DNA of 64,000 bases from an uncultured Holophaga sp. (GCA_963664825.1 OY761614.1:3168001-3232000); one strand, 5' to 3'; counted from the first letter of the stretch, positions 5,543 through 47,114 are shown. Notes: generated from the letters alone by a model not told the origin. A program made the numbers and translations.

Positions 5543-5938
5543 ATGTCGCACAAATCAATGATCCGACTCCGCATGAGTAGCCACGATGCCCATTACGGCG
5601 GCAATTTGGTGGACGGGGCCCGGATGCTGGGACTCTTCGGGGATGTGGCCACGGAGCTCCTCATCCTTCAGGACGGTGACGAGGGGCTCTTCGCGGGTTA
5701 CGAGCAGGTGGAATTCCTGGCCCCTGTATTTGCCGGGGACTTCATCGAAGCCGTGGGCGAGATCGTCAAAGTCGGCAATTCCTCCCGGAAGATGACCTTC
5801 GAGGCCCGGAAGGTCATCGTGCCCAGGCCCGACCTCAACGACTCCGCAGCCGACGCTCTGGCTGAGCCGATCGTGGTATGCAGGGCCGTGGGCACCTGCG
5901 TGGTGCCCAAGGGCAAGCAGCGCAAGGGCGCTTGTTAG
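5543..5938 (+). CDS. kal: 3-aminobutyryl-CoA ammonia lyase (hotdog fold)
   Basis: [69 protein letters not shown], characteristic of Kal; other lysine-pathway genes are in the window. Confidence 0.88.
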
Positions 5939-5962
5939 AACGGAAATCCGCCGAGGTCCCAG

Positions 5963-7102
5963 ATGCAATTTCAGCTTGATCGGGAGCATCAGCTCCTGGT
6001 GCAGATGTACCGTACCTTCGCGCAGACCGAGGTCCGGCCCTTGGCCAAGGAGGTCGACGAAGCGGAGCGCTTCCCCCTGGAGACCGTCCAGAAGATGGTC
6101 GGGCTGGGGTTCATGGGCATTCCCTTCCCCAGGGAATACGGGGGCCAGGGTGGGGATAATCTCGCCTACACCCTGGCGGTGGAGGAACTCTCCAAGGCCT
6201 GCGGCACCACGGGCGTGATCCTCTCGGCCCATACTTCCCTCTGTGCGGCGCCCATCTTCGAACATGGCACCGAGGCCCAGAAACAGCAGTTTCTGGTGCC
6301 CCTGGCCAAGGGCGAGAAGCTGGGCGCCTTCGCGCTCACCGAGCCCAACGCGGGCACCGACGCCAGCGGCCAGCAGACCACCGCCGAACGCCAGGGCGAT
6401 CACTTCCTCGTCAACGGCAGCAAGATCTTCATCACCAACGCCGAGTACGCCGATATCTACATCGTCTTCGCCATGACCGACAAGACCAAGGGTACCCGCG
6501 GGATTTCGGCCTTCATCCTGGAAAAGGGCATGCCCGGGTTCCGGGTGGGCAAGAAGGAAGCAAAGATGGGGATCCGCGGATCGGCCACCTGCGAACTCAT
6601 CTTCGAGAATGTGCCGGTGCCCTTGGAAAACCTGCTGGGCAAGGAGGGGGGCGGATTCGGCATCGCCATGAAGACCCTGGATGGCGGGCGCATCGGCATC
6701 GCGGCCCAGGCCCTTGGGTTGGCCCAGGGCTCCATCGATGAGACTGTGGCCTACACCAAGGAACGCAAGCAGTTCGGCAAGGTGCTCTCCGCCTTCCAGA
6801 ACACCCAGTTCCAGCTGGCGGATATGCAGACTCGGACCGACGCGGCGAGGCTGCTGGTCTATCGCGCGGCCTCCCACAAGGATGCCAAGTTGCCCTATGG
6901 CGTGGAGGCGGCCATGGCCAAGCTCTTCGCGTCAGAGACGGCCATGGACGTGACGAGCCGGGCCGTGCAGCTCCACGGCGGCTATGGCTACACCCGGGAA
7001 TATCCCGTCGAACGCATGATGCGGGACGCCAAGATCACGGAAATCTACGAAGGAACCTCGGAAGTCCAGCGCATGGTCATTTCCGCGTCAATGCTCCGCT
7101 AG
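5963..7102 (+). CDS. bcd: Butyryl-CoA (acyl-CoA) dehydrogenase
   Basis: GAFALTEPNAGTDA, GSKIFITN, TLDGGRIGIAAQ, QLHGGYGY, KITEIYEGTSEVQR; followed by etfBA. Confidence 0.9.
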   Translation: MQFQLDREHQLLVQMYRTFAQTEVRPLAKEVDEAERFPLETVQKMVGLGFMGIPFPREYGGQGGDNLAYTLAVEELSKACGTTGVILSAHTSLCAAPIFEHGTEAQKQQFLVPLAKGEKLGAFALTEPNAGTDASGQQTTAERQGDHFLVNGSKIFITNAEYADIYIVFAMTDKTKGTRGISAFILEKGMPGFRVGKKEAKMGIRGSATCELIFENVPVPLENLLGKEGGGFGIAMKTLDGGRIGIAAQALGLAQGSIDETVAYTKERKQFGKVLSAFQNTQFQLADMQTRTDAARLLVYRAASHKDAKLPYGVEAAMAKLFASETAMDVTSRAVQLHGGYGYTREYPVERMMRDAKITEIYEGTSEVQRMVISASMLR

Positions 7103-7127
7103 GGCTCCGCTGAAGGGGGGTTTGAAC

Positions 7128-7907
7128 ATGAAGATTGTCGTTTGCATCAAGCAGGTGCCCGATACCACGGAAGTCCGCATCGATCCGGTCACCGGGACTC
7201 TGATCCGCGATGGCATTCCCAGCATCATCAATCCCGATGACAAGAGCGGGCTCGAGGCGGCCCTGGTCCTCAAGGAACAGATGGGCGCGACGGTGACGGT
7301 GCTCTGCATGGGGCCCTCCCAGGCCGATATCGCCCTACGGGAGGCCCTGGCCATGGGGGCCGACGAGGCCGTGCTCGTCTCGGACCGGCGCTTCGGCGGG
7401 GCCGACACCTGGGCCACCTCCATCACGCTGGCCTCGGCCCTCCGGAAGCTCGGCTTTGATCTCATCATCTGCGGCCGTCAGGCCATCGATGGCGATACGG
7501 CCCAGGTGGGCCCCCAGATCGCCGAGCACCTGGGCATCCCCCATGTGAGCTACGTCAACGAACTGGCATTGGCCGGGCAGCACATCCTCGTCAAACGGAT
7601 GTTCGAGGATGGCTACCACCGCATCAAGGCTCCCATGCCCTGCCTGATCACGGTGCTCAAGGACATGAACGAGCCCCGCTACATGTCCGTGGGGGGCGTC
7701 TACGACGCCTTCCGCAAGGACATCCCCGTCTGGACCGCGGAAGACCTGGATGTGGATCGTTCCCAGATCGGCCTCAAGGGTTCTCCCACCCGGGTGAAGA
7801 AGTCCTATACCAAGGGCACCAAGTCCGCAGGGCAGGTCTTTGAAGTGGATCCCCGGGAGGGGGCCCGGATCATCGTCGAAAAACTGAAAGAGAAATTCAT
7901 CATTTGA
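7128..7907 (+). CDS. etfB: Electron transfer flavoprotein beta subunit
   Basis: MKIVVCIKQVPDT, GADTWAT, GRQAIDGDTAQVGP. Confidence 0.95.
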   Translation: MKIVVCIKQVPDTTEVRIDPVTGTLIRDGIPSIINPDDKSGLEAALVLKEQMGATVTVLCMGPSQADIALREALAMGADEAVLVSDRRFGGADTWATSITLASALRKLGFDLIICGRQAIDGDTAQVGPQIAEHLGIPHVSYVNELALAGQHILVKRMFEDGYHRIKAPMPCLITVLKDMNEPRYMSVGGVYDAFRKDIPVWTAEDLDVDRSQIGLKGSPTRVKKSYTKGTKSAGQVFEVDPREGARIIVEKLKEKFII

Positions 7908-7921
7908 ACGCGGAGCGGGCC

Positions 7922-8935
7922 ATGGATATTTCGAACTACCACGGCGTTCTGGTGTTCGCGGAACAGCGGCGCGGCCAGATCCAGAAGGTGGCCTTTGAGC
8001 TGCTGGGCATCGGTCGCCAGATCGCCGATACCCTCGAAGAACCCCTGATGGCGGTGCTCATCGGGAGCGAGCTGACCCAGGCCCACAGCGCTGATCTCAT
8101 CGCCCTGGGCGCGGACCGGGTTATCCTGGTGGATCATCCCCATCTGGAGATCTATCGCACGGAGCCCTACACCAAGGCTCTGGCGCAAGTCATCGACGCC
8201 TTCAAGCCCGGGATCGTCTTCGTGGGGGCCACCACCCTCGGCAGGGATCTCGCGCCGCGGGTCTCGGCCCGGGTGAAGACGGGGCTGACCGCGGATTGCA
8301 CCTCCCTTGGCATCGAGGATGGTTCCCGCAACCTGCTCATGACCCGGCCCGCCTTCGGCGGCAATATCATGGCCACCATCATCTGCCCCGAGCACAGGCC
8401 CCAGATGTCGACCGTGCGCCCCGGCGTCATGCGCAAGCTGGAGCGGGACGATGCGCGGAAGGGCGCAGTCATTTCGTTTGCCGCTGAACTCGGCCCCGAT
8501 AACCTGAATGTGGAAGTCCTGGAGGTGGTCCTGGAACAGGCCACCCTGAAAAATATCGAAGATGCCACGGTGCTGGTGGCCGGGGGCCGAGGGCTGGGCA
8601 GCGCTTCGAACTTTGCGCATCTACAGGGAGTGGCCTCCCAACTGGGTGGCATGGTCGCGGCCTCCCGGGGCGCGGTGGACGCGGGCTGGGTGGGGACCGA
8701 AAGCCAGGTGGGGCAGACGGGCAAGACCGTGAGGCCCGATCTCTACATCGCCTGCGGCATCTCGGGCATGATCCAGCACGTCGCGGGCATGGAGGATTCC
8801 CAGTACATCGTGGCGGTGAACAAGAATGCCGATGCACCCATCTTCGAATACGCCGATCTGGGCATCGTGACAGACGTCAACAAGCTTCTGCCGGCCCTGG
8901 TCGAGGAGCTGAGGCTGGCCAAGGCTGGGGCCTGA
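7922..8935 (+). CDS. etfA: Electron transfer flavoprotein alpha subunit
   Basis: GLTADCT, RPAFGGN, QVGQTGKTVRPDLYIACGISG.IQH.AGM. Confidence 0.95.
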   Translation: MDISNYHGVLVFAEQRRGQIQKVAFELLGIGRQIADTLEEPLMAVLIGSELTQAHSADLIALGADRVILVDHPHLEIYRTEPYTKALAQVIDAFKPGIVFVGATTLGRDLAPRVSARVKTGLTADCTSLGIEDGSRNLLMTRPAFGGNIMATIICPEHRPQMSTVRPGVMRKLERDDARKGAVISFAAELGPDNLNVEVLEVVLEQATLKNIEDATVLVAGGRGLGSASNFAHLQGVASQLGGMVAASRGAVDAGWVGTESQVGQTGKTVRPDLYIACGISGMIQHVAGMEDSQYIVAVNKNADAPIFEYADLGIVTDVNKLLPALVEELRLAKAGA

Positions 8936-11554: not shown

Positions 11555-12691
11555 TCAGACCGCTGTGTAGGTCTTGTAGAGGTTGTCCCGCTCCAGGGGC
11601 TGGAATCCGGCCTCGCCGATGAGGCGCTCCAGATGCCCCTTCGTGAGGCCCTGGGGCGTCTTGGCGCCGGCGAGATGGGCGATCTCTTCGGCGATGATGG
11701 TGCCATCCAGATCATCGGCCCCGTAGTTCAGGCCCACCTGGGCCAAGCCTTCCGTGATCATCACCCAGTAGGCCTTGATGTGCGGCACGTTGTCCAGGAG
11801 CAGGCGCGCCACGGCGATCTCCCGGAGATCCTGGACGCCGGTGGTCTCGAAAAGCGTGCGGCTGCGGCTCAGTTCGTTGTCCTCCACCTGGTACGCCAGG
11901 GGGATGTAGGCGAGGAAGCCATGCGTGCGGTCCTGGAGTGCCCTCAGGCGCAGCAGATGCTCTACGCGATGCCTGGATTCCTCGATGTGGCCATAGAGCA
12001 TGGTGGCGTTGGTGGGGATGCCCCGGCGATGACAGATCTCGGCCACCCGGAGCCAGACGTCGGCTTCCTTCTTCCCGACGCAGATCTGTTCCCGAATGCC
12101 CTCGTCAAATATCTCGGCCCCCCCTCCCGGGCAGCTCTCCAGCCCTGCGGCCACGCAGCGATCGAGGAAGGCTTCGACGCTGAGGCCCGAGACCCGGGCG
12201 TAGTAGTCCATCTCCACCATGGTGAAGACCTTGAGATGGATGTCGGGGAAGCGCGCCTTGACCTTGCGGAACAAGTCCTCGAAGTAATCGATCTTCAGCT
12301 TGGGGTTGTGACCGGAGGTCATGTGCAGCTCGCGAACGCCCAGGTTCTCGGGCTTCTCCAGCTCCCGGACGATATCCTCGGCGCTGAGCACGTAGGCCCT
12401 TGGGTCGCCGGGCTTGGCCTGGAAGGCGCAGAACTGGCAGTGGGTGTGGCAGATATTGGTGTAGGAAATGCGGCGGCTCACGACATAGTAGGTCTTGAGG
12501 CCATGCTTCTGGAGCCGCACATGATGGGCCATGGCGCCCAGGCCCGTGAGATCGGGCGTCTCGTAGAGTCGCAAACCGTCCTCGAAGGAGAGGCGTTCCC
12601 CCTTCAGGACCTTCTCGCAGATCGGCAGCAGCTGGGGATCGGTGATGTAGCGCCTCAGGGGCAGATTCAGGCCGGGCATGGGCTTCTCCAT
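11555..12691 (-). CDS. mqnE: Aminofutalosine synthase (radical SAM, futalosine menaquinone pathway)
   Basis: CHTHCQFCAF, PGGGAEIF, TNATMLYGHIE, ARLLLDNVPHIKAYW, GADDLDGT. Confidence 0.85.
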   Translation of the reverse strand: MEKPMPGLNLPLRRYITDPQLLPICEKVLKGERLSFEDGLRLYETPDLTGLGAMAHHVRLQKHGLKTYYVVSRRISYTNICHTHCQFCAFQAKPGDPRAYVLSAEDIVRELEKPENLGVRELHMTSGHNPKLKIDYFEDLFRKVKARFPDIHLKVFTMVEMDYYARVSGLSVEAFLDRCVAAGLESCPGGGAEIFDEGIREQICVGKKEADVWLRVAEICHRRGIPTNATMLYGHIEESRHRVEHLLRLRALQDRTHGFLAYIPLAYQVEDNELSRSRTLFETTGVQDLREIAVARLLLDNVPHIKAYWVMITEGLAQVGLNYGADDLDGTIIAEEIAHLAGAKTPQGLTKGHLERLIGEAGFQPLERDNLYKTYTAV

Positions 12692-13889: not shown

Positions 13890-13890
13890 A

Positions 13891-34877: not shown

Positions 34878-35915
34878 ATGCCCATGGGCTGCAAATACGG
34901 ATCCCACCGCGTGCTCGTGCCGAAAGGCGCCCTTCCTCAGCCCGCGCAGAAACTCAATAACGATTTCTCGACGGTCTACGACAACGAGATCCTCGTGGAC
35001 GTGATCGCCCTGAACATCGATAGCGCCAGCTTCACTCAGATCGAGGAAGAAGCCGGCCACGATGTGGAGAAGATCGGCGCCAAGATCCTCTCCATCGTCG
35101 GCGAGCGCGGCAAGCAGCAGAACCCGGTCACGGGTTCCGGCGGCATGTTCATCGGCAAGGTGGCCAAGATCGGCGCCGCCCTCAAGGATCGCGATCTCAA
35201 GGTGGGCGATAAGATCGCCTCCCTGGTCTCCCTGAGCCTCACCCCTCTGAAGATCAACAAGATCCTCAAGATCCACCCCAAGATCGACCGGGTGGAAATC
35301 GAGGGCCAGGCCATCCTCTTCGAGAGCGGCATCTACGCCAAGCTCCCCGAGGACATGACCGAGAGCCTGGCCCTGGCGGCCTTGGATGTTGCGGGCGCAC
35401 CCGCCCAGACTGCCAAGCTCGTGCGGCCCGGCCATAGCGTCCTGGTCATTGGCGCCGGCGGCAAGTCCGGCATGCTCTGCTGCTACGAAGCCATGAAGCG
35501 CGTGGGCCCCACGGGCCGCGTGGTGGGCAACGTGCACTCCGCCCGGGATATCAAGACCCTGATGGATCTTGGGCTCTGCCATGAGGCTGTGCAGGGCGAT
35601 GCCTCCAGCCCCATCGAATTCCTGGATATCGTGACGAAGGCCAACCTGGGCCGGGAATACGACGTGGTCATTACCTGCGTGAACGTGGCCAATTGCGAGA
35701 TGGGCAGCATCCTGCCCTGCAAGGATGATGGGGTCGTCTACTTCTTCAGCATGGCCACCAGCTTCACCAAGGCGGCTCTGGGCGCCGAGGGCGTGGGCAA
35801 GGACGTCACCATGATCGTCGGCAACGGCTACACCAAGGATCACGCCGAGATCACCCTGTGGGAACTGCGGGAGAATCCTAAGCTCCGCAAGCTCTTCGAA
35901 GAACGCTACCTCTAA
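34878..35915 (+). CDS. kdd: L-erythro-3,5-diaminohexanoate dehydrogenase
   Basis: GCKYGSHRV..P.G.LPQPA, LNIDSASF, NPVTGSGGM, LVSLSLTPL, LDVAGAPAQ, FFSMATSF; AAGGAG RBS. Confidence 0.92.
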   Translation: MPMGCKYGSHRVLVPKGALPQPAQKLNNDFSTVYDNEILVDVIALNIDSASFTQIEEEAGHDVEKIGAKILSIVGERGKQQNPVTGSGGMFIGKVAKIGAALKDRDLKVGDKIASLVSLSLTPLKINKILKIHPKIDRVEIEGQAILFESGIYAKLPEDMTESLALAALDVAGAPAQTAKLVRPGHSVLVIGAGGKSGMLCCYEAMKRVGPTGRVVGNVHSARDIKTLMDLGLCHEAVQGDASSPIEFLDIVTKANLGREYDVVITCVNVANCEMGSILPCKDDGVVYFFSMATSFTKAALGAEGVGKDVTMIVGNGYTKDHAEITLWELRENPKLRKLFEERYL

Positions 35916-36019: not shown

Positions 36020-37276
36020 ATGGTTCAGGCAGCGCCGAAGCTCAATCTGACCAGGTCCATGAAGATGTATGAGGAGAGCCAGAGGCTTTCCCCCGGTGGG
36101 ATGATGGGCATCCGTCGGCCGTACAACTTCGTTGTCGGCGAGTACCCGATCTTCCTGGAACGCGGCTATGGCGGCCACATCGTGGATGTGGACGGCAACG
36201 ACTACATCGATATGCTCTGCGCCTACGGGCCGATCATCCTGGGCTACAACGAGCCCGAGATCAACGAGGCCGTGAAGGCGCAGATGGAGAAGGGCTTCTG
36301 CTTTTCGCTGGTTCAGCCCATCCAGAACGAGCTGGAGCGCAAGCTCATCGAGCTCATTCCCAGTGCCGAGCGCGTCATCCTGGTCAAAACCGGATCCGAC
36401 GCGACGACCCTTGCCACGCGCATCGCCCGGGGCTACACGGACCGGACTAAGATCCTGCGCTGCGGCTATCACGGCTGGCACGACTGGGCGGTGGAGGTGC
36501 ATGGCGGTGTGCCCCCCTGCGTGCAGGAGCTCACCATCGAATTCGAGTATGGCGATTTAAATGACCTGGAGGCCAAGCTGAAGGCGAACCAGGGAGAGGT
36601 GGCCTGCATCATCATCACGCCCGTGGGTCATCCACTGGCCAAGCCAGTCATTCCGCCTCCCGAGGGCTACCTGGAGGGGGTCCGGGAGCTGGCGGATCGC
36701 TACAAGGTCGTGCTCATCTTCGACGAGATCCGCACGGGCTTCCGGGTGGCCCTGGGGGGGGCCCAGGAGCGCTATGGTGTCACGCCGGATCTCTCTACCT
36801 TCGGCAAGGCCATGGCCAATGGCTACGCCCTCAGCGCCGTGGTGGGCAAGGCCGAATTCATGAACGTCTGCGAGAAGAAGGTCTTCGTCTCCTCCACCTT
36901 CTTCCCCAATAGCCTGGAGATGGCCGCCGCGCTGAAGTGCATCGAGATCCTCCAGCGGGACAAGATCCTCGATCAGGTCTGGGAAAAGGGCGCGTGGTTC
37001 CTGCAGGCGTTGAAGACCGTAGTGGCGGCCTCCAAGGTGCCCGTGAGCGTCAATGGCATCCCTCCCATGCCCTTCCTGTCTTTCGAAAAAGTGGACGGTT
37101 TCCACAAGGAACGCCGCGAGACGTTCTATACCGAGACCATCCGCCGGGGCCTGTTCATCCAGCCCTACCACCACTGGTACATCAGCGCCCGCCACACCCA
37201 GGCCGATCTAGACAAGGCCGTCTGGGCCATCACCGAGGCGCTGGCCATCGTGAACGCGCACTACCCGGTCAACTAA
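36020..37276 (+). CDS. kat: Class III PLP aminotransferase, probable 3-aminobutyryl-CoA aminotransferase
   Basis: GIRRPYNFV, DVDGNDYID, KTGSDAT, GYHGWHDW, FDEIRTGFR, STFGKAMANG; position between kdd and kce matches Kat. Confidence 0.75.
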   Translation: MVQAAPKLNLTRSMKMYEESQRLSPGGMMGIRRPYNFVVGEYPIFLERGYGGHIVDVDGNDYIDMLCAYGPIILGYNEPEINEAVKAQMEKGFCFSLVQPIQNELERKLIELIPSAERVILVKTGSDATTLATRIARGYTDRTKILRCGYHGWHDWAVEVHGGVPPCVQELTIEFEYGDLNDLEAKLKANQGEVACIIITPVGHPLAKPVIPPPEGYLEGVRELADRYKVVLIFDEIRTGFRVALGGAQERYGVTPDLSTFGKAMANGYALSAVVGKAEFMNVCEKKVFVSSTFFPNSLEMAAALKCIEILQRDKILDQVWEKGAWFLQALKTVVAASKVPVSVNGIPPMPFLSFEKVDGFHKERRETFYTETIRRGLFIQPYHHWYISARHTQADLDKAVWAITEALAIVNAHYPVN

Positions 37277-37311: not shown

Positions 37312-38136
37312 ATGGACAACAAGCTCATCATCACCTGCGCGGTCACGGGCGCGGAGACGACCAAGGAAATGCAGCCCGCCCTGCCTGTCACGCCCGAGGA
37401 GATTGCCACCAGCACCCTGGAGGCCTATGAGGCGGGGGCTTCCGTGCTCCACCTGCATGTCCGCCAAGCCGATGGCACCCCCACCCAGGACGTGGCCATA
37501 TTCCAGAAGGCCATCGAACTGGTGCGCGCCAAGTGCGACATCGTCATCGAATGCACCACCGGCGGCGCGGCCTGGATGACGCCCGAGGAGCGGCTCCAGC
37601 CCGTGACGCTCAAGCCGGAGATGGCCAGCCTGGATTGCGGAACTGTGAATTTTGGCGACGAGTACATCGTCAACACGCTGCCCATCATGCGCCAGTTCGC
37701 CGAGGCCATGCGGGATGGCGGTGTGCGCCCCACCCTGGAATGCTTCGATCTGGGGCATGTCTACGCCAGCCACATCCTCATCAAGGAGGGACTGCTGCAG
37801 GAGCCCTTCCACTACGGCCTGGTGCTCAACGTGCCCGGCGCCGCCAAGTACGATGTGGATGTGCTGGAATTCCTGGTCCGCAAGCTGCCCAAGGGGGCCT
37901 TCTGGACGGCCTTCGGCATCGGCGGCAAGGCCAACGTCGATAGCATCTACGCCACCATCGCCCTGGGCGGCAATCTCCGCGTGGGCTTCGAGGACAACAT
38001 CTACTACGGCAAGGGCCGCTTGGCCAAGTCCAACGCCGAGCTGGTGGAGCGGGCGGCCCGCATCGGCAAGGATTGCGGCCGCGAATTGGCCCGCCCCGAC
38101 GATGTCCGGCAGATGCTCCAGCTTAGGAAGGCCTGA
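37312..38136 (+). CDS. kce: 3-keto-5-aminohexanoate cleavage enzyme
   Basis: IITCAVTGAE, HLHVR, TTGGA, MASLDCGTVNFG, RVGFEDN. Confidence 0.92.
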   Translation: MDNKLIITCAVTGAETTKEMQPALPVTPEEIATSTLEAYEAGASVLHLHVRQADGTPTQDVAIFQKAIELVRAKCDIVIECTTGGAAWMTPEERLQPVTLKPEMASLDCGTVNFGDEYIVNTLPIMRQFAEAMRDGGVRPTLECFDLGHVYASHILIKEGLLQEPFHYGLVLNVPGAAKYDVDVLEFLVRKLPKGAFWTAFGIGGKANVDSIYATIALGGNLRVGFEDNIYYGKGRLAKSNAELVERAARIGKDCGRELARPDDVRQMLQLRKA

Positions 38137-38269
38137 CATGAGGGTGCAGCTCCCGGCAGCCGCCTTCTGAAAGAGGCTGCTGCCGGGAGTGCCCGACTGG
38201 AACCTTCGCCCCTGGTGCCGGGATCGGCATGGAAACGGACTCCTCTCCCATTTTTTTAGCGAGAATTTC

Positions 38270-39532
38270 ATGAGATACAACTCTGTAGACTGGCGCTCCA
38301 TCGATCTCTTCAAGAATGTCACCGCGGAAGAGTGGAACGACTGGCGCTGGCAGCTCAAGCACGGCATCCACGACGTGGAGACCCTTGAGAAGGTCATCGC
38401 CCTCACCGACCAGGAGCGCGCGCACCTGCAGGAGTGCCTCAAGAAGTTCACCATGGCCATCACGCCCTACTACGCGGCTCTCATGGATCGCAATGATCCC
38501 AATTGCCCGGTGCGCATGCAGTCCGTGCCGCGCCTGGCCGAGCTGCACGACGATCCTTCGGATCTCGCCGACCCGCTCCACGAGGATGTGGATAGCCCCG
38601 TCCCCGGGCTCACTCATCGCTATCCCGACCGGGTGCTCCTGCTGGTGACCAACATCTGCTCCATGAATTGCCGCCACTGCACCCGGCGTCGCTTCGTGGG
38701 GGATACGGACGTGGATATGCCCGAGGAGCAGATCGCCAAGGCCATCGAATACATCCGGAAGACCGAGACCGTGCGGGACGTCCTCATCTCCGGCGGCGAT
38801 CCGCTGGTATTGGGCGACGATCAGCTGGAATCCATCCTCAAGCGGCTCCGGGCCATCGATCACGTGGAGATCATCCGCATCGGCACGCGCACGCCCGTGG
38901 TGATGCCCCAGAGGATCACCGATTCGCTGGTGGCCATGCTCAAGAAATACCACCCGGTCTTCATCAATACGCACTTCAACCATGCCAAGGAGATCACCCA
39001 GGAATCCCGGACCGCCTGCGCCAAGCTGGCCGACGCCGGCATTCCCCTGGGCAACCAGAGCGTGCTCCTGCGCGGCGTCAACGATCAGACCGAAGTGATG
39101 AAGCAGCTCGTCCACAAGCTGCTGACCATCCGCGTGCGCCCCTACTACATCTACCAGTGTGATCTCTCCCTGGGCATCTCCCACTTCCGCACGACGGTGG
39201 ACAAGGGCATCGAGATCATCGAGGGCCTTCGCGGGCACACGACGGGCCTGGCCGTGCCCACCTTCGTGGTGGACGCTCCCGGGGGCGGCGGCAAGATCCC
39301 CGTCATGCCCAACTACCTCATCAGCCGGGGCGAACACCGGGTGGTGCTGCGGAACTACGAGGGCGTCATCACCACCTACACCGAACCCGTGCATACGACG
39401 GCGGCGCCTGTGGCCAAGCTCGAACCCAGCCACAAGGTCTACAAGGCCCTGGATGGGGTGGCCACCCTGTTGTCCGGGGAGAGGCTATGCCTCGAACCGG
39501 CGGAACTCTCCCGCAAACAGCGGAAGTTCTAG
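38270..39532 (+). CDS. kamA: L-lysine 2,3-aminomutase (radical SAM/PLP)
   Basis: [52 protein letters not shown]. Confidence 0.95.
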
Positions 39533-39549
39533 CAGGGATCGGGGGATTC

Positions 39550-40407
39550 ATGGCGGGCATCGAGGGCGCAGCGGGGGCGGTGACGGCGATCACCGGCTTC
39601 GAGAAGGGGTCGGGCAAGACGACCTTCCTGAACTACGCCCTGCCGCTGGTGCGCCAGGCCGGGCCCGTGGCCGTCTTCTCCATCGGCGTGGACGGCGCCC
39701 TGAAGGCCAGGGCCACCAGCGCCCCGCCTCCCGAGATCCGCGTGGAGGCAGGCGACCTGGTGATGACCACCGATGCCTTTGCCAGGGCTGCCACGGCTCG
39801 TTTTGAAATCCTCGAGGCCATCCCCGGGCGGAGCACCCTGGGGCGCCTCTTCCTGGGGCGGGCCCTGCGGGGAGGCACGGTGACCCTGGTGGGCAGCGAA
39901 CACTTGAGCGTCCTGGCCGAACTCATCGCGCAGATCCGCCGGGAGGGCTGGGCCGCCTCCGTGCTCGTGGATGGCGCCGTGAGCCGCATCACCCAGGTCG
40001 CCGCCCTGGGGGATCTGGGATTCGTCTTCACCGCCCGCATCGACCGGGGCAATCTCCAGAGAGCCGCCGCCCGCATCCGCAACCTGGGCCTGCTGGCGGC
40101 CCTCCCCGTGGAACCGCATCCCTCGCCGGAGGTGCTGCGGATCGAGGGGCCTCTCCTCCCGGCTCACCTGACCGACCTTCCCAAGGGCACCCAGAGGCTT
40201 TCCGTGGAGGACTTCACCAAGGTCTTCCTGGAACCCGCGGAACTCGAACGGACGCTCCGCCACCTGGCGATCAGCGTGCGCCGGGAATTCCGCCTCCTCT
40301 GCTGCGCGGTGGCCCTGCGGGATATCACCCGCGCGGAGTTCCTCCAGGCCGTGGGTGAAAGCCTGGGGGATGCCATCCTGTTCAATCCCTTCGAGGTCGC
40401 CTGCTGA
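39550..40407 (+). CDS. kamB: KamB-like subunit of the lysine 5,6-aminomutase reactivating factor
   Basis: N-terminal P-loop-like GFEKGSGKTT, SIGVDG, LVDGA; located between kamA and kamC. Confidence 0.7.
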   Translation: MAGIEGAAGAVTAITGFEKGSGKTTFLNYALPLVRQAGPVAVFSIGVDGALKARATSAPPPEIRVEAGDLVMTTDAFARAATARFEILEAIPGRSTLGRLFLGRALRGGTVTLVGSEHLSVLAELIAQIRREGWAASVLVDGAVSRITQVAALGDLGFVFTARIDRGNLQRAAARIRNLGLLAALPVEPHPSPEVLRIEGPLLPAHLTDLPKGTQRLSVEDFTKVFLEPAELERTLRHLAISVRREFRLLCCAVALRDITRAEFLQAVGESLGDAILFNPFEVAC

Positions 40408-42005
40408 TGCGCGATTTCATTGGCTACGCTCAATTCGAGATGCTCTGGGAGCGCTTCCTGCCCGAGACCCCCTTCGGGCGCAGGGCCAAGGAATCCATGA
40501 CCGTCTTGGCGGAGCCTGAGGCTCTGACGCGCATCTGGGAGGAGACGGACCAGGCCCTCACGCTCCTCCAGGGGCTGGACGAGGATAGCGTCCGACTGAG
40601 CCGGATCCAGCATCACCTCAAGCGCTTGCCCCGGTTTTGCGAGGACTCCAAGCCCCTCTACGATGAAGTGGAGATCTTCCAGTTCAAGAAGTTCCTCCAC
40701 AACTACAAGAGCCTCGGGGAGTTGCTGGACCCGGAGACGCGCCGTGCCTTCGGCCTCCATTACGCATCCGAGGCCCTGGAACGGCTTCTGGATACGGGCC
40801 GTCAGAGCGCCGAGTCCTTCTACGTGGCCGACGCCTATTCCGAGAGCCTGGCCGAACTGCGGGCCGCACTCCGCGAGACGGATGCCGCCCTCAAGGCCCT
40901 GCAGGCGCGCCGGGCGTCTGAAATCCGGGCGCGGTGGGGCTTCGACTTCGGCAGCCGCGCCTTCCTGCTGGTGCCCAGGGATGCCCTGGGCCCTCTGGAA
41001 AAAGCCAGCGATCTGCTCCGGGTGGAGCCCTTCGACGAAACCAAATATGCCATCCGGATGCAGGCCTCGGGGGAGGAATTCGCCCTCCTGGAGCGCCGGA
41101 CCGCCCTGCTTTCCAGGGAACGCTCCGCCGAGGATGACGTGTTGGAGACGCTCTCCGAGGCCTTGCGGCAGGAAGGGGCGCGCTTTGCGCAGTACCGCCA
41201 AGCCGTCACGGGCTTCGATCTGGCCTTCGCCCGGGCGGGGCTGGCGCGGGAATTCCGCCTCAGGCGCCCTGCGCTTAAGAATGGGCCCATCGAGATCCGC
41301 GGAGGCCGCTTCCTGCCCTGCGAAGAAGCCTGTAGGGAGCTGGGCACCGAGTACGTGGCCCTGGACGCTCTTTTCGATGCGCAGGCCACCGTGATATTCG
41401 GGTCCAATATGGGCGGCAAGACCATTGTATTGAAGACCCTGGCCTTCCTCCAGCTCTGCGTCCAGATGGGGCTCTTCGTTCCCGCCGAGGCCTTCACCAC
41501 CCACCTCTTCGGCCATTTCCACTATCTCGGCGAGGGCCACGCCACGGCGGTGGCCCAGGGGCTCTCGGGCTTCGGGTTCGAGATCCGGCAGTTCGTGGAG
41601 GCCTCCCAGGATTTCAAGACTCCGACGCTGGTGCTCTTCGATGAATTCGCCCGCACCACCAATTCCCTGGAGGCCGAGGCCATCCTCTCGGCGGTCCTGG
41701 AATCTGTGGCCTCCCAGGCGGGGGTGGTGGCCCTCTTCAGCACCCATTTCCGGGGGGTGCGGCGTTTCCCGGGGGTCCGCTACCTGCGGATGAAGGGCCT
41801 GAACCGGGAGGGGCTGGACCTGGATCTGGCCTCCGGCACGGCGCTAGAGGCCCGCATCCGTCTCATCGACCAGCGCATGGAATACCATCTCGTCGCTGAC
41901 GAAGGCGGCTCGGGGGTTTCGGACGCCATCGCGGTGGCCAGCCTGCTGGGGCTGGATCCGGCCATCACGCGGCGGGCCGCCGATTTCTTCAATAACGGAC
42001 ACTGA
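40407..42005 (+). CDS. kamC: KamC, MutS-domain-V ATPase (aminomutase reactivating factor)
   Basis: GSNMGGKT, GLSGFGFE, LFDEFARTTN, FSTHF; directly upstream of kamDE. Confidence 0.78.
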   Translation: MRDFIGYAQFEMLWERFLPETPFGRRAKESMTVLAEPEALTRIWEETDQALTLLQGLDEDSVRLSRIQHHLKRLPRFCEDSKPLYDEVEIFQFKKFLHNYKSLGELLDPETRRAFGLHYASEALERLLDTGRQSAESFYVADAYSESLAELRAALRETDAALKALQARRASEIRARWGFDFGSRAFLLVPRDALGPLEKASDLLRVEPFDETKYAIRMQASGEEFALLERRTALLSRERSAEDDVLETLSEALRQEGARFAQYRQAVTGFDLAFARAGLAREFRLRRPALKNGPIEIRGGRFLPCEEACRELGTEYVALDALFDAQATVIFGSNMGGKTIVLKTLAFLQLCVQMGLFVPAEAFTTHLFGHFHYLGEGHATAVAQGLSGFGFEIRQFVEASQDFKTPTLVLFDEFARTTNSLEAEAILSAVLESVASQAGVVALFSTHFRGVRRFPGVRYLRMKGLNREGLDLDLASGTALEARIRLIDQRMEYHLVADEGGSGVSDAIAVASLLGLDPAITRRAADFFNNGH

Positions 42006-42022
42006 GTCACACAGGAGTGAAC

Positions 42023-43582
42023 ATGGAAACCAAACTGGCGCTCTCGGAAGAACGGATTGCTCGGGCCCGGGAACTCTCCTCGCGCATCGTGGAACCCGTC
42101 GGCATCTTCGTGGATGCCCACACGACGGTCACCGTGGAGCGGGCCACACTGCGCCTGGCGGGGGCGGACCTGGCCGATGCCGATGGCGTGCCTGTGCCCA
42201 ATCTCGTGGTGGACCAGCTGAAGGGCCGCCTGGAGAATGGCGCGCTCCTCACCTACGTGAACGCCCTGGTGAAGACGGGCGAGACCGTGGACGGTCTCAA
42301 CCGGAAGATCGCCGAAGGGTTGAATATCGCCGAACTGCCCTTGGGCGATCGCGCCACGCTGGAGGCCAAGGCCCAGGAACTGGTGCGGGTCTTCGCCACT
42401 CGGGTGAAGGGAAACCGCGCCCATCGCGAGGCCAAGCTTCAGGAGTTCGAAGGGAAGAACCACTCGCCCTTGCTCTACCTCATCGTGGCCACCGGCAATA
42501 TTTTTGAAGATGTGAAGCAGGCCCAGGCCGCTGCCGAACAAGGCGCCGACGTGGTGGCCGTCATCCGCACCACCGCCCAGTCGCTCCTCGATTACGTGCC
42601 CCAGGGGGCCACCACGGAAGGTTTCGGTGGGACCTACGCCACCCAGGAAAATTTCCGCATCATGCGCGCGGCCCTCGACGAGGCCGTGGAGAAGCAGGGC
42701 CGCTACATCTACCTCACCAACTACGCCTCCGGTCTCTGCATGCCGGAGATCGCGGCCATGGGCGCTTTGGAGCGCCTGGACATGATGCTCAACGATTCGA
42801 TGTACGGGATCCTCTTCCGCGATATCAACATGTACCGCACCTTCGTGGACCAGAAGTTCAGTCGCATGATCAATGCCTTCGCCGGCGTCATCATCAACAC
42901 CGGCGAGGACAACTACCTCACCACCTCCGACGCTGTCGAGAAGGCCTACACGGTTCTGGCCAGCCAGTTCCTGAACGAGCGCTTCGCCTATATTGCGGGC
43001 TTGCCCGCCAAGCTGATGGGCTTGGGACACGCCTTCGAGATGGACCCCACCATTAAGAACGGCTTCCTACTGGAGCTGGCCCAGGCCCAGATGGCCCGGG
43101 AGATCTTCCCCGAGGCGCCCCTGAAATACATGCCGCCGACGAAATTCATGACCGGCGATATCTTCAAGGGCGTGGTGCAAAACGCGCTCTTTAATTTCGT
43201 CTCCCAAGCCACGGGGCAGGGCATCCACCTGCTGGGCATGCTGACGGAGGCCATCCACACGCCCTACATGCAGGACCGCTCCCTGGCTCTCGAGAACGCA
43301 AATTACGTCATGAACACCATGGCCGATCTGGGCAGCGAGATCGAGTTCAAGAAGGACGGCATCATCGTGAATCGCGCCCACCAGGTGTTGGACGAGGCCG
43401 TTGAGTTCCTGGAGAAGATCGAGAAGGTCGGCCTCATGGACGCCATGGAACAGGGGGAATTCGCCGATATCAAGCGTCCCCGGGATATGGGCAAGGGCCT
43501 CGATGGCCTGGTGAAGAAGGGGCCCGAATACTGCAACCCCTTCGAGGCCTACCTGAAGGCCGAGCTCGGTCTGGATAAGTAA
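42023..43582 (+). CDS. kamD: Lysine 5,6-aminomutase alpha subunit
   Basis: HTTVTVER, YLIVATGNIF, VIRTTAQSLLDYVP, NYASGLCMPE, INTGEDNYL, KYMPPTK. Confidence 0.95.
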   Translation: METKLALSEERIARARELSSRIVEPVGIFVDAHTTVTVERATLRLAGADLADADGVPVPNLVVDQLKGRLENGALLTYVNALVKTGETVDGLNRKIAEGLNIAELPLGDRATLEAKAQELVRVFATRVKGNRAHREAKLQEFEGKNHSPLLYLIVATGNIFEDVKQAQAAAEQGADVVAVIRTTAQSLLDYVPQGATTEGFGGTYATQENFRIMRAALDEAVEKQGRYIYLTNYASGLCMPEIAAMGALERLDMMLNDSMYGILFRDINMYRTFVDQKFSRMINAFAGVIINTGEDNYLTTSDAVEKAYTVLASQFLNERFAYIAGLPAKLMGLGHAFEMDPTIKNGFLLELAQAQMAREIFPEAPLKYMPPTKFMTGDIFKGVVQNALFNFVSQATGQGIHLLGMLTEAIHTPYMQDRSLALENANYVMNTMADLGSEIEFKKDGIIVNRAHQVLDEAVEFLEKIEKVGLMDAMEQGEFADIKRPRDMGKGLDGLVKKGPEYCNPFEAYLKAELGLDK

Positions 43583-43614
43583 GTGGACTTTCATTCTGGA
43601 AATGAGGTGACGAC

Positions 43615-44352
43615 ATGATCATTCGACCCTATGGCGATACGCTCGATGACGGTGCGGTGCAGCTCTCCTTCACGCTGCCGGTGGCCGACGGTCCCAGGGG
43701 CCGGGAGGCCGCCCGGGTATTTGTCGAGAAGCTGGGCTTCAAACATGCGGAAATCGTCCACTCCCACGCCATGGCCGAAGGCTTCTCCTTCTACGTGGCC
43801 TATGGCCGCACCGAGATCTCCGTGGACTTCGACACCATCCATATCGAAGAGGCCACCGGCGAGAAGATCTACACCATGGACGAGGCCTGCCAGGTGATCC
43901 GCGAGCAGCTGGGCCGCAAGGTCATCATCGTGGGCGCCTGCACGGGCTTCGACGCCCATACCGTGGGCATCGACGCCATCATGAACATGAAGGGCTACAA
44001 CCATCACTACGGGCTGGAGCGCTACCAGGAGATCGAGGCTCACAACCTGGGCGCCCAGGTGCCCAACGACAAGCTGATCGACTACGCCCTGAAGGTGAAT
44101 GCCGACGCCATCCTGGTGAGCCAGATCGTCACCCAGAAGGATGTCCACATCCAGAACATGACCGAACTCATCGAGCTCTTGCAGGCTCGCGGACTGCGGG
44201 AGCGCTTCATCGTCATCGCCGGGGGCACGCGCATCGGCAACAAGCTGGCCGTGGAACTCGGCTACGACGGAGGCTTCGGCAAGGGCAGCTATGCCGATCA
44301 TGTGGCGACTTTCATCGTGGACCGGCTCATCGAACACAAACAGAATCACTGA
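43615..44352 (+). CDS. kamE: Lysine 5,6-aminomutase beta subunit (B12-binding)
   Basis: PYGDTLDDG.VQLSFTLP; DAHTVGIDAIMNMKG (DxHxxG plus PLP lysine). Confidence 0.95.
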   Translation: MIIRPYGDTLDDGAVQLSFTLPVADGPRGREAARVFVEKLGFKHAEIVHSHAMAEGFSFYVAYGRTEISVDFDTIHIEEATGEKIYTMDEACQVIREQLGRKVIIVGACTGFDAHTVGIDAIMNMKGYNHHYGLERYQEIEAHNLGAQVPNDKLIDYALKVNADAILVSQIVTQKDVHIQNMTELIELLQARGLRERFIVIAGGTRIGNKLAVELGYDGGFGKGSYADHVATFIVDRLIEHKQNH

Positions 44353-44466: not shown

Positions 44467-45153
44467 ATGGTCAAGAAACCCATCATTTCCGCGGCCGAAG
44501 CCGTGGCCAAGGTGCGGGAAGGAGATGTCGTCATGATCGGCGGCTTCCTCGCCTGCGGTTCGCCGCACACGCTCATCCAGGCCCTGAAGGCTCAGGGCAC
44601 CAAGGACATGACCCTGATCTGCAACGACACGGCGGCCCACGACTTCAAGTCGGGCAAGATCAATGGCGTCGGTCACCTGGTGCAGGGACGGCAGTTCAAG
44701 AAGATCATTGCCAGCCATATCGGCCTCAACCAGGAGACCCAGCGGCAGATGAATGCCGGTGAGACCGAGGTTGAGCTCGTGGCCCAGGGATCCCTGGCCG
44801 AGCAGATCCGGGCCGCGGGCGTGGGCCTGGGGGGCATCCTCACGCCCACGGGCATCGGCACCGAGGTGGAGCAGGGCAAGCAGGTCATCACCGTGGGCGA
44901 CCGGCCCTACCTGTTGGAGCTGCCCATCAAGGGCGACGTGGCCCTCATCAAGGCCAAGAAGGCCGATACGGTCGGCAACTTGGTCTATGCGGCCACGGCC
45001 CAGAACTTCAACCCTCTGATGGCCATGGCGGCCTCCCTGGTCATCGCGGAGGTGGAGGAGATCGTGGAAGTGGGCGAGATCGATCCCAACGAGGTCCAGA
45101 CCCCTTCGATCTTCGTGGATTTCCTGGTCAAGGCCGAACGGCTGGAATGGTGA
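44467..45153 (+). CDS. atoD: Butyrate/acetoacetate CoA-transferase alpha subunit
   Basis: MIGGF, ICND, QGSLAEQIRAAG.GLGG, GNLVY, NFNPLMA. Confidence 0.88.
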   Translation: MVKKPIISAAEAVAKVREGDVVMIGGFLACGSPHTLIQALKAQGTKDMTLICNDTAAHDFKSGKINGVGHLVQGRQFKKIIASHIGLNQETQRQMNAGETEVELVAQGSLAEQIRAAGVGLGGILTPTGIGTEVEQGKQVITVGDRPYLLELPIKGDVALIKAKKADTVGNLVYAATAQNFNPLMAMAASLVIAEVEEIVEVGEIDPNEVQTPSIFVDFLVKAERLEW

Positions 45154-45160
45154 GGCGGAA

Positions 45161-45826
45161 ATGGAATACGTAGCCAACAAGAACATCATCGCCAAGCGCA
45201 TCGCCCAGATCTTCAAGTCCGGCGATGTGGTCAATCTCGGCATCGGCCTGCCCACCCTGGTGGGCAACTACATCCCCGAGGACGTCACCCTCATCCTCCA
45301 GTCCGAGAACGGCATGCTGGGCCTGGGCCCGGCGCCAGAGAAGGGCCACGAGAACTGGGACCTCACCAACGCGGGCAGCGCGCCCGTCTCCGTGAAACCC
45401 GGCGGCTGTTTCTTCGATAGCGCCACGAGCTTCGGCATCATCCGGGGCGGGCACGTGGACTTCACGGTGCTGGGCGTGTTGGAAGTCGACCAGGAGGGCA
45501 ACCTGGCCAACTACAAGATCCCTGGCAAGATGGTGCCCGGCATGGGCGGCGCCATGGATCTCACGGCGGGTTCCCGGGAGGTTATCGCCGCCACCCTGCA
45601 CTTCGAGCCCTCGGGCGCTTCGCGCCTGAAGCGGCGCTGCACACTGCCCCTCACGGCGGCGCGGGAGGTGAATTTCGTCGTCACGGATCTGGGGTACTTC
45701 GAAATCGTGGGCGATCGCTTCCATCTCCGGGAATGCTTCGCGCCCTACACCCCCGAGTGGATCAAGGAACACACGGACGCCGAGGTCGTCATCCCCAACG
45801 ACTGCCGGATCGTGAGCTTCGATTAG
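45161..45826 (+). CDS. atoA: Butyrate/acetoacetate CoA-transferase beta subunit
   Basis: VNLGIGLPT, catalytic QSENG, GMGGAMDL. Confidence 0.88.
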   Translation: MEYVANKNIIAKRIAQIFKSGDVVNLGIGLPTLVGNYIPEDVTLILQSENGMLGLGPAPEKGHENWDLTNAGSAPVSVKPGGCFFDSATSFGIIRGGHVDFTVLGVLEVDQEGNLANYKIPGKMVPGMGGAMDLTAGSREVIAATLHFEPSGASRLKRRCTLPLTAAREVNFVVTDLGYFEIVGDRFHLRECFAPYTPEWIKEHTDAEVVIPNDCRIVSFD

Positions 45827-45851
45827 ACCCTCTTCCATTAAGGAGAATTAC

Positions 45852-47114
45852 ATGAGTGCAGTCAGCATCGTCGGCGCCTGCAACACCAAGTTCGGTTCCC
45901 TGGTCAAACGGAACAAGGAGACCGGCGAGATCACCGACCTGAAATCCATCTACGACCTAATGATCGAGGCGGGCCAGGGCGCCCTGGCCGACGCGGGCGT
46001 GACCGGCAAGGATATCGATGGCGTGTGGGTGGGTTCCTGCGCACCGGGCATCTTTGCCAACCAGGAGCACCTGGCCGCCTTCGCCACCGAGATCGATCCC
46101 GAGGGCCTGCGCTTCAAACCCATGACCCGCTGCGAGGATGCCTGCGCCTCGGGTTCCGTAGCCCTCTATGACGCCCTCTACGCCGTGGAATCCGGCCGCG
46201 CCAAGGTGGCGCTGGTGCTGGGCGTGGAGAAGATGAACCTCCTGGACACCAAGGGCGTGACCCACGCCCTTGGCACCTGCTCCTACTGGCCCGAGGAAGG
46301 CGCCCACGGCATGACCTTCCCCAGCCTCTTCGCGGAATACGCCAAGGGCTATCGGGATCACTACAAGCTCTCCGACGATGAACTGGCCCGCATGTTGGCC
46401 CATGTCTCCGCCCTCTGCTACCGGAACGGCGTCGACAATCCCCTGGCCCACTTCAGCAAGGGCGGTCCCTCGGATAAGCTGGGTCTCTTCACCGCCGAGG
46501 CCATCCTGAATCTGCCCCCGGAGAAGAACCCCGTCATCGCAGAGCCCCTCAAGCTCCACGACTGCTCGCTGGTGACCGACGGCGCCGCGGCGCTGGTGAT
46601 CATGCGCACCGACCAGGCCCGGAAGAGCGGTAAGAATATCGTGGAGATCGCGGGCATTGGCCACGCCAACGAGCGCATGGGCCTCTCCATGCGCCCCAAC
46701 ATGTATGAACTCATGGCCGGCAAGGAGGCCGTGCGCCGCGCCTTTGCCGAAGCCAAGATCACCATTGCCGATGTGGATATCGCCGAAGTGCACGACTGCT
46801 TCACCATCAATCAGCTGCTCTGCACGGAAGCTCTCGGCCTCTCCAAGGATGGCCGCGCGGGCCACGACTACATGGCGGGCCGCTTCACCCGGGACGACGC
46901 ACACTGCGCCGTGAACCTCAGCGGCGGCCTCAAGGCCAAGGGCCATCCCGTGGGCGCCACCGGCGTCTCCATGCATGCCCTGCTCTACAAACAGCTGGTG
47001 GGTGAGCCCATCGGTGCCACCCTCACGAAGAAGACCCCCCAGATCGGCGTCTCCTTCAATGTGGGCGGCAGCTCCGTGACCAATTGCGTGACGGTGCTGA
47101 AGCGGCTGAAGTAG
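45852..47114 (+). CDS. Thiolase, SCP2/archaeal type
   Basis: EDACASG, AEVHDCF, GGLKAKGHPVGATG, FNVGG. Confidence 0.85.
   Translation: MSAVSIVGACNTKFGSLVKRNKETGEITDLKSIYDLMIEAGQGALADAGVTGKDIDGVWVGSCAPGIFANQEHLAAFATEIDPEGLRFKPMTRCEDACASGSVALYDALYAVESGRAKVALVLGVEKMNLLDTKGVTHALGTCSYWPEEGAHGMTFPSLFAEYAKGYRDHYKLSDDELARMLAHVSALCYRNGVDNPLAHFSKGGPSDKLGLFTAEAILNLPPEKNPVIAEPLKLHDCSLVTDGAAALVIMRTDQARKSGKNIVEIAGIGHANERMGLSMRPNMYELMAGKEAVRRAFAEAKITIADVDIAEVHDCFTINQLLCTEALGLSKDGRAGHDYMAGRFTRDDAHCAVNLSGGLKAKGHPVGATGVSMHALLYKQLVGEPIGATLTKKTPQIGVSFNVGGSSVTNCVTVLKRLK

Follow-up and report, generated by a model that had tools for sequence, protein, structure and literature searches.

The lysine operon and its aminotransferase

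The window—the whole stretch of 64,000 nucleotides from an uncultured Holophaga sp. that was analysed (GCA_963664825.1, OY761614.1:3168001-3232000)—bears a lysine operon at 34.9–47.1 kb, in which every gene of the order kdd-kat-kce-kamABCDE-atoDA-thiolase given by the initial annotation was found in its place with NCBIfam and Pfam models, the gene identities being established by homology. On the plus strand, kdd (34878..35915; 3,5-diaminohexanoate dehydrogenase; NF052381, 266.6 bits at a cut-off of 200) is followed by kat (36020..37276; 3-aminobutyryl-CoA aminotransferase), kce (37312..38136; Pfam BKACE), and kamA (ORF limits 38189..39532; lysine 2,3-aminomutase; TIGR03820, 620 versus 525). 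Further downstream lie kamB and kamC (39487..42005; 5,6-aminomutase reactivase), kamD and kamE (42017..44352; B12-dependent lysine 5,6-aminomutase), atoD and atoA (44467..45826; acetoacetate CoA-transferase; TIGR02429 and TIGR02428 above their subfamily cut-offs), and a thiolase of the archaeal/SCP2-like type (45852..47114), the sole thiolase found in the genome. KamC (NF052383, 364 bits versus 300), KamD (NF052384, 821 versus 600), and KamE (NF052385, 367 versus 280) exceed their NCBIfam cut-offs; Kce (NF052387, 377.7 versus 382) and KamB (NF052386, 112.8 versus 210) stay below theirs, yet are best matches and syntenic. A GC-rich stem-loop without a T run, read from the plus strand at 47132..47159, likely marks the end of the operon.

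The protein of 36020–37276 is Kat. It shares 61% identity (249/410) with the ORF that is bracketed exactly by both published CLOAM0809 primers, and it lies between kdd and kce, as kat adjoins kdd in 16/16 loci of the family. In a tree of 98 rows—a quick tree search from which L080 was left out—the window protein and the reference Kat form sister subclades within one group of 93 rows (SH-aLRT 90), and hemL sits on a very long branch. An identity as HemL, the GSA aminomutase, is excluded by the genome's own hemL, which lies elsewhere inside a haem operon, scores 546 bits versus 282 for Kat, and is only 32% identical to it. The phylogeny that was proposed as a check on the aminotransferase hence came out in favour of Kat. 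However, a clade of 29 members that lack a lysine context falls inside the Kat family in this tree, so belonging to the family does not by itself settle the substrate; transamination of 3-aminobutyryl-CoA with 2-oxoglutarate is a prediction.

The kal-bcd-etfBA block

Kal, Bcd, and EtfBA are encoded on the same strand at a separate locus, 25.9 kb from the end of etfA (8935) to the start of kdd (34878), in agreement with the roughly 26 kb first noted. The block consists of kal (5543..5938), bcd (5963..7102), etfB (7128..7907), and etfA (ORF limits 7904..8935, with a probable start at the ATG near 7922); a phospholipase D-like gene precedes it (3854..5374, plus strand; Pfam PLDc_2, synteny), and mqnE (11555..12691, minus strand) bounds the variable stretch on its right. 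That the two operons are physically linked was rejected as a meaningful feature: in the single-contig congener G012 the kal and kdd loci are ~456 kb apart, so the spacing in the window is incidental.

Kal exceeds the cut-off of its curated equivalog model (NF052388, 195.9 bits versus 160) and is 70% identical to a kal beside kdd, 55% to the kal of a kdd-kat-kal-kce arrangement, and ~46% to Acl2, a value counted by hand, the tree having been built without Acl2. Its reading as a lysine-pathway enzyme therefore gained support: it looks like lysine-pathway Kal more than the β-alanyl-CoA lyase Acl, and its substrate preference is predicted correspondingly. Bcd is of the clostridial type, its closest solved relative being 5OL2_C (598 bits). 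For EtfB, the best matches among solved structures are 5OL2 (chain B, 381 bits), 6FAH (296 bits), and 4KPU (248 bits), which we take to be bifurcating complexes, and canonical ETFs reach at most 93 bits. The ETF thus appears to belong to the bifurcating group, and NADH/crotonyl-CoA-dependent ferredoxin reduction is predicted.

It is extremely improbable that the block serves another substrate, for example β-alanyl-CoA converted via acryloyl-CoA to propionate. Kal is indeed homologous to Acl2, and the top NCBIfam match of Bcd is AcrC, though under its cut-off (514 versus 640). Against this stand the score and the 70% identity of Kal, the proximity of Bcd to solved butyryl-CoA dehydrogenases, and the presence of kdd in 11/12 kal-bearing genomes of the family versus 24/120 overall.

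A predicted Rex operator

The initial annotation gave the kal operon its own promoter, and this is borne out by a sigma-70-like element, TTGACC-17-GATAAT (5392..5420, plus strand), which is conserved in five other genomes, with TTGAC invariant in 6/6 aligned kal promoters. Overlapping its −10 box lies an 18-bp palindrome, TCGATAA-N4-TTATCGA (5413..5430). An operator matrix trained on the kal promoters of the five other genomes yields eight matches of at least 18 bits in the present genome (G000) and none in each of 20 block-shuffled copies; seven of the eight precede Fe-ADH, kal, adhE (two), hydB (two), and rex-hydCBA, and the eighth, at 1178047, has no assigned target. Over 27 genomes, 39 sites were counted versus 4 for a reversed control, and 28 of the 34 sites outside G000 lie before rex or redox genes. 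The genome encodes rex itself (NF003994, 269.6 versus 130; all eight solved relatives are Rex-family). Promoter and operator are conserved in 6/8 genomes that carry the cassette, G005 and G011 having no site before it; rex was not found in G035, which bears a site, nor in G018, which bears two.

The architecture—two 5-bp arms that flank 8 AT-rich base pairs, positioned over a promoter—is that described in PMC5886521, where the published Firmicutes arm is TTGTT. TCGATAA is identical to TTGTTAA at 5/7 positions. Firmicutes-type consensi, allowed up to 3 mismatches, pick none of kal, adhE, and hydB in G000; at 3 mismatches they give 59 and 17 matches, mostly noise. The palindrome is a candidate Rex operator; its arm differs from the published one, and its predicted link to Rex draws on the content of the regulon. 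No description of a Rex operator for Holophagaceae was found in the literature, and the palindrome offers a candidate for this group.

Upstream of kdd, the kal-type palindrome is absent from 22/22 loci (best at least 4 mismatches), and a scan for a sigma-70 promoter before the window's kdd gave no match. A Rex-like look-alike within kdd (34954) was rejected as codon-derived and not conserved (1–6 mismatches over the 22 loci). What precedes kdd is a conserved 17-mer (34763..34779, plus strand), unique in the genome and recurring within 3 mismatches in 8/22 kdd loci at 112–125 bp before kdd; it is predicted to be the site of a regulator. Separate control of the two operons, as proposed at the outset, now has comparative support because they carry different conserved upstream motifs, but own control extends to the Kal/Bcd/Etf block only. 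Three RNA runs share 0.05–0.06 of words with the sequence; the one that was aligned gave five short pieces of 90–95%, none of them on kal-bcd-etf.

Distribution of the two branches

Kal and kat together are uncommon but recurrent. The proposed survey of their co-occurrence shows that G000 is not alone: both occur in 4 of the 27 family genomes having any kat, kal, or kdd—next to 13 with kat only (plus one with a partial kat), eight with kal only, and one with neither—and, among 50 genomes from other lineages that carry kat, in 7 (Bacillota, Spirochaetota, Cloacimonadota, and Bacteroidota), where kal lies within a bcd-etf operon in 4/7.

Within the family, the kal-bcd-etfBA block comes and goes as one unit, an observation that is new here. 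An EtfB at least 76% identical occurs in exactly the 8/27 genomes with kal-bcd-etf adjacency. G045 shows the empty site, mqnE directly abutting an FHA-GAF gene; the phospholipase D-like gene belongs to the stretch missing there and is a mere fragment in G012 and G025. Four congeners retain kat without the cassette, which is hence dispensable, and three genomes (G035, G005, and G009) combine a cassette-type kal with a kdd-kce operon lacking kat. The Kal tree (128 columns) is for the most part without resolution and favours neither gain nor loss of the cassette. The topology of the kdd tree does not track genus, which indicates recombination within the family.

Such a pattern might also arise from evolutionary overlap without joint function, in which kat took the place of kal in the operon, or vice versa, and one of the two is now a passenger being lost. 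The small number of family genomes with both enzymes and the departure of the kdd tree from genus would fit this. Nevertheless, we regard it as quite unlikely: every reading frame is intact, promoter and operator are conserved with the cassette, and the pairing recurs in four other phyla, in part with kal again in a bcd-etf operon.

Electron sinks, acceptors, and sources of crotonyl-CoA

The genome inventory comprises six FeFe-hydrogenase matches, three of the HydABC type, two glutamate dehydrogenases (GDHs), Pta, AckA, Buk, and an NfnAB-like protein; Rnf was not found in it. A menaquinone-linked chain is present, with sdhCAB, a complex-I-like nuoA-D,H-N locus without nuoEFG, cytochrome bd, and an NrfHA-like pair, and mqnE and sdhB lie in the window as first noted (NCBIfam). 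Neither a molybdopterin oxidoreductase nor a haem-copper oxidase nor a large multihaem cytochrome was found in G000, and its multihaem c proteins number only two. The proposal of an external acceptor thus has support only in part, with fumarate, nitrite, and trace O2 as possible acceptors; nitrate or Fe(III) respiration was rejected as an electron route because the inventory yielded no enzyme for either.

As no crotonase was found in G000—nor a MaoC or 2-hydroxyacyl-CoA dehydratase, nor AbfD in a weak motif scan—no source of crotonyl-CoA other than Kal is evident in this genome, although a methylglutaconyl-CoA-hydratase-like enzyme with side activity may supply some. This non-redundancy is confined to G000, since the three other both-branch genomes of the family (G012, G025, and G061) keep crotonase.

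The same inventory allows for a reading in which Kat runs in reverse and, together with Kal, replaces Hbd and crotonase: acetoacetyl-CoA and glutamate would give 3-aminobutyryl-CoA and then crotonyl-CoA and NH3, with GDH recycling glutamate. The net reaction would equal that of Hbd and Crt, and kal takes the crt-hbd place of the Rex-controlled clostridial operon. This is very unlikely in our view, as kat and the thiolase sit in the lysine operon, which is without a Rex site, and crotonase is retained in the three genomes named above. A broader version, in which acetoacetyl-CoA and crotonyl-CoA are interconverted through Kal and Kat by a reversible aminated shunt that with GDH stands in for Hbd and crotonase under Rex control, is doubtful to much the same degree as the passenger scenario. 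If true, butyrate would be reached from acetyl-CoA by a route that has so far gone unrecognised, with kal in the crt-hbd slot of the clostridial butyrate operon.

A probable built-in exit and optional overflow

The most probable reading—held with some, though not high, confidence—is that the Kat exit is built into the lysine operon and that Kal/Bcd/Etf is an optional NADH overflow released by Rex. The lysine operon would convert lysine to 3-aminobutyryl-CoA and acetoacetate. Kat and glutamate dehydrogenase would then provide an oxidative exit that yields, from each lysine, 3 acetate, 2 NAD(P)H, and 2 ATP by substrate-level phosphorylation, and kal-bcd-etfBA would provide a reductive exit under Rex repression. 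When NADH/NAD+ rises—without an acceptor and with H2 accumulating—Rex would leave its operator. Enzyme activities, Rex binding, and the direction and split of the flux are hereby what we infer from the genes and sites; as the optional block sits behind a predicted Rex site, the butyrate branch is most likely an overflow for surplus electrons, and both branches most likely run concurrently in a ratio set by redox rather than as alternatives. Book-keeping gives an NADH:ferredoxin ratio of 1:1, as a confurcating hydrogenase needs, at a Kal share of 50%, presuming NAD-linked Kdd and GDH; if these use NADP, the NfnAB-like protein could balance a Kat-only route.

Control is predicted to be one-sided, with kat co-encoded with the pathway and the Kal/Bcd/Etf block alone separately regulated. 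The initial annotation, taken in its strict form, had instead suggested an either/or switch by an external acceptor, with Kal forming butyrate when fermenting and Kat forming acetyl-CoA when respiring, which we consider unlikely. It is in line with the differing upstream motifs and the menaquinone-linked chain, and the overflow reading in part already covers it, because respiration would lower NADH and close the Rex-controlled cassette. But kat cannot be silenced apart from the pathway, the oxidoreductases and oxidases listed above are missing from the inventory, and the operator is common to H2- and ethanol-forming genes. A two-way Kal/Kat switch is not upheld, since kat lies inside the operon that both routes need, and the predicted signal is NADH/NAD+ via Rex.

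With Kal/Bcd/Etf as overflow, Kat would act as the high-ATP exit, for which an electron sink is required. This predicts that H2 pressure and the presence of a single optional block govern how much butyrate is made from lysine, a point that bears on calling butyrate potential from metagenomes. Perret et al. (PMC3149608) end by asking what the Kat variant means biologically and note that it forgoes the conservation of energy in crotonyl-CoA reduction; this question becomes testable with genomes that have both exits, together with congeners that have a single one.

Comparison with known systems

Both known lysine exits are combined in one anaerobic bacterium here; the enzymes are known, but neither their arrangement nor the way it is controlled seems to have been described. 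The Kat variant was reported for 'Ca. Cloacimonas acidaminovorans' and a digester Bacteroidetes (Perret et al. 2011, PMC3149608), and from what is accessible of that report the present operon shares with it kdd, kce, kamA, kamDE, atoAD, the thiolase, and the HemL-like Kat. There, the variant is defined by its lack of kal, and where crotonyl-CoA comes from is left open; here, in contrast, kal is present and joined to bcd-etfBA in an operon that has a predicted operator of its own.

The classical Kal fermentation of Fusobacterium nucleatum and clostridia (PMC8473912, PMC3994512, in the portions available) likewise leads via Kal, Bcd-EtfAB, and AtoAD to butyrate and acetate, but differs in that kal here lies outside the lysine operon and kat inside, and an Rnf that would re-oxidise ferredoxin was not found. 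Ammonia-oxidising archaea of marine sediments encode Kal and a putative Kat in the same lineages, as here (bioRxiv 2020.06.24.168906); according to the accessible sections, these lack the upper lysine pathway, and scavenging of intermediates was proposed rather than a redox branch point. Beyond these archaea, no further report of kal together with kat was found in the passages of the literature examined.

For control, the nearest likeness is Clostridium acetobutylicum, whose predicted Rex targets include crt-bcd-etfB-etfA, adhE2, hydA, and rex (PMC3828012, available in part). As there, a bcd-etf operon, adhE, hydrogenase, and rex stand under one predicted operator, an 18-bp palindrome with an AT-rich core; unlike there, kal rather than crt heads the operon, the arm reads TCGA(T/G) in place of TTGTT, and the host is Holophagaceae-like.

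The two lysine loci

The window comes from a genome (G000) assembled as a single 3.47-Mb contig, with a completeness of 96.6%. The gene content that the initial annotation assigned to both loci is borne out by NCBIfam and Pfam: a cassette kal-bcd-etfB-etfA at 5543–8935 and a lysine operon kdd-kat-kce-kamABCDE-atoDA-thiolase at 34878–47114. The products of kce and kamB score below their NCBIfam cut-offs, yet are best matches in the expected gene order, and all genes of both loci are present in one copy each, distant paralogues aside. In a DNA sequencing run, the kal region is represented by zero-difference contigs—one of them 3690–7241—at even depth; since this run possibly derives from the source sample, the coverage checks the assembly only.

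The thiolase (45852–47114) is archaeal/SCP2-like and the sole thiolase found; it closes the lysine operon in several genomes of the family, and a motif scan gave no DUF35 partner for it. The two ORFs behind it (47264–49548) bear no confident NCBIfam or Pfam match. On the reverse strand, a single open frame (61270–63387) encodes a dephospho-CoA kinase domain and, behind it, a TldD domain, either as a fusion or by a lost stop. A chemoreceptor gene (9909–11501) with a GC3 of 0.56 versus about 0.85 in its neighbours is missing at the same site in two congeners (G061 and G012) and looks recently acquired.

Identity of Kat, Kal, and Bcd–Etf

According to passages of Perret et al. 2011 (PMC3149608), Kat was defined in genomes without kal and is active on 3-aminobutyryl-CoA; these passages also caution that a 60% Kat homologue exists without lysine genes, and the paper closes with the question of the Kat variant's purpose. 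A reference Kat was located via the published primers, the forward one matching seven metagenome loci. Both primers are exact in four of the seven, 1220 bp apart and flanking a 414-residue ORF that adjoins a thiolase—an arrangement described in the same paper (PMC3149608) for CLOAM0809/0810. The window Kat (36020–37276) is identical to this primer-defined reference at 249 of 410 positions, and its named relatives at 78–81% identity belong to Holophaga, Holophagales, or Holophagaceae; judging from these names, the host is probably Holophagaceae-like. The true hemL of G000 sits in a haem operon and scores 546 bits with the HemL model, as compared with 282 for the window Kat and 279 for the reference Kat.

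The phylogeny proposed in the initial annotation, here a quick tree of 98 rows, places the window Kat together with Kats from lysine clusters of the family, Bacillota, and Spirochaetota, in a group that is sister to the one containing the reference Kat. Nested inside the Kat family of this quick tree is a 29-row clade without lysine context; hence, the Kat assignment rests on gene context and not on identity alone. This clade (loci L041, L044, L047–L054, L058–L073, L075, L077, and L037) is well supported and mostly of Desulfobacterota/Syntrophorhabdaceae. Some of its genes have etf, mutase, and acyl-CoA dehydrogenase genes as neighbours.

Kal (5543–5938) has an NCBIfam score of 195.9 (cut-off 160) and is 70% identical to kal genes adjoining kdd and, by hand count, ∼46% identical to the beta-alanyl-CoA lyase Acl2. 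The closest entry for both Bcd and EtfB is 5OL2, the C. difficile bifurcating complex. The bifurcating Bcd–Etf reaction involves 2 NADH, crotonyl-CoA, and ferredoxin (passage in PMC8473912).

Distribution of the two exits

Of 120 sampled genomes of the family, 16 gave a match to kat, 11 to kal, and 24 to kdd. The 27 genomes having kat, kal, or kdd, G000 included and many of them fragmented, served as the comparison set. The co-occurrence survey suggested by the initial annotation gives both kat and kal in four of these (G000, G012, G025, and G061), all of one genus; 13 carry kat only, eight kal only, one neither, and one an incomplete kat at the end of a contig. Clostridial-type EtfB (at least 76%) is present in eight of the 27, which are exactly those with kal-bcd-etf adjacency, and the eight cassettes form a single clade (support 100/100). 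In G045, mqnE directly adjoins the FHA-GAF gene and the entire block is absent. Second kal copies exist in G009 and G005 (L151 7997–10119; L101), that of G009 within a kal-crt-hbd cluster.

Outside the family, 50 kat-bearing genomes out of 80 were searched—the first 46 and four picked for lysine context or lineage—with kdd found in 43 and kal in seven; kal+kat co-occurrence is hence recurrent, not unique. In two of the seven, the genes run kdd-kat-kal-kce; in four, kal belongs to a bcd-etf operon, which in two of them also has crt-hbd; and in one, kal stands apart. A Dethiobacter and another Bacillota genome carry kdd-kat-kal-kce in one cluster (L300 8844–12479; L004). The kal+kat arrangement is real, intact, and recurrent.

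Predicted Rex control

Aligned kal upstream regions conserve TTGAC and, overlapping the −10 box, a palindrome of 18 bp (5413–5430), the predicted operator of the NADH-sensing repressor Rex. An operator matrix trained on the kal promoters of five other genomes, G000 excluded, gives eight matches of at least 18 bits on G000 and none in each of 20 block-shuffled copies. Seven of them lie upstream of kal, adhE (two), hydB (two), an iron ADH gene, and the rex-hydCBA operon. The eighth, a strong operator-like site at G000:C1:1178047 (L334 6049), has no assigned downstream gene. In C. acetobutylicum, crt-bcd-etfB-etfA, adhE2, hydA, and rex are among the predicted Rex targets (passage in PMC3828012), and a 5-8-5 operator architecture is described in PMC5886521. 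Against the Rex assignment, the palindrome arm differs from the Firmicutes Rex consensus.

A degenerate pattern, partly tuned on the G000 and G009 sites, detects 39 sites in 15 of the 27 genomes, and its reversed control four. Outside G000, 28 of 34 sites precede rex, hydrogenase/NuoEF-like, ADH, crt, kal, or HdrA-/Fdh-cytochrome-like genes, and six precede none of these rex/redox types. Four genomes of a rex-less genus bear no operator-like site. It speaks against the Rex assignment that rex was not found in G018 and G035, both of which have such sites, and that no site precedes the cassette in G005 and G011. Upstream of kdd, the palindrome is absent at 22 of 22 loci; a 17-mer there (34763–34779), distinct in sequence from the palindrome, is unique in G000 and kept at eight of the 22.

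Redox balance of the two exits

G000 encodes two GDHs, Pta, AckA, butyrate kinase, and AdhE, six FeFe-hydrogenase matches including three of HydABC type, an NfnAB-like fusion, and a Hyf-like complex. Its respiratory genes comprise sdhCAB, cytochrome bd, an NrfHA-like pair, and a nuo locus without nuoEFG; Rnf, molybdopterin oxidoreductases, haem-copper oxidase, and large multihaem cytochromes were not found. This profile is mainly fermentative and H2-forming, and passages on peat Holophaga genomes (PMC9599518), in which lysine is unmentioned, agree with it. The NrfA-like protein of the NrfHA-like pair (L281 5721–7925) has five CxxCH and no CxxCK. An oxidative ornithine pathway is present too (ord, ortB, oraE, and racemases; L222 4335–14689).

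Per lysine, Kat with GDH would yield three acetate, two NAD(P)H, and two ATP and would require an electron sink, and Kal with Bcd–Etf would yield butyrate, acetate, one ATP, and one reduced ferredoxin pair at a deficit of one NADH. An even split between the exits would supply NADH and ferredoxin at 1:1 for HydABC without Rnf, presuming NAD-linked enzymes, and with a Rex-released cassette the NADH level would govern this split. Such a redox-set division between the Kat and the Rex-released Kal/Bcd–Etf exits is the most likely working, and we consider it rather probable. The acceptor-dependent switching of the initial annotation survives in one part: an acceptor, likewise an H2-consuming partner, would close the predicted Rex-released cassette.

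Alternatively, an aminated Kat–Kal shunt might stand in for Hbd and crotonase, which appears improbable. G000 has an orphan Hbd-like gene; short-chain crotonase, present in eight of eight congeners, gives no match in G000 at 1e-30, and neither MaoC nor 2-hydroxyacyl-CoA dehydratase was found there.

Relation to known systems

Each enzyme of the pathway is already characterised. A literature search with thin coverage of subscription journals found no paper on a complete lysine fermenter with the two exits, on kal under the control of Rex, or on Holophagaceae that ferment lysine. Passages of bioRxiv 2020.06.24.168906 report Kal and a putative Kat in sediment ammonia-oxidising archaea, which differ by bearing no upper lysine pathway. 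As judged from sequence, a known lysine pathway would occur here in a new form, with a predicted and testable control logic.
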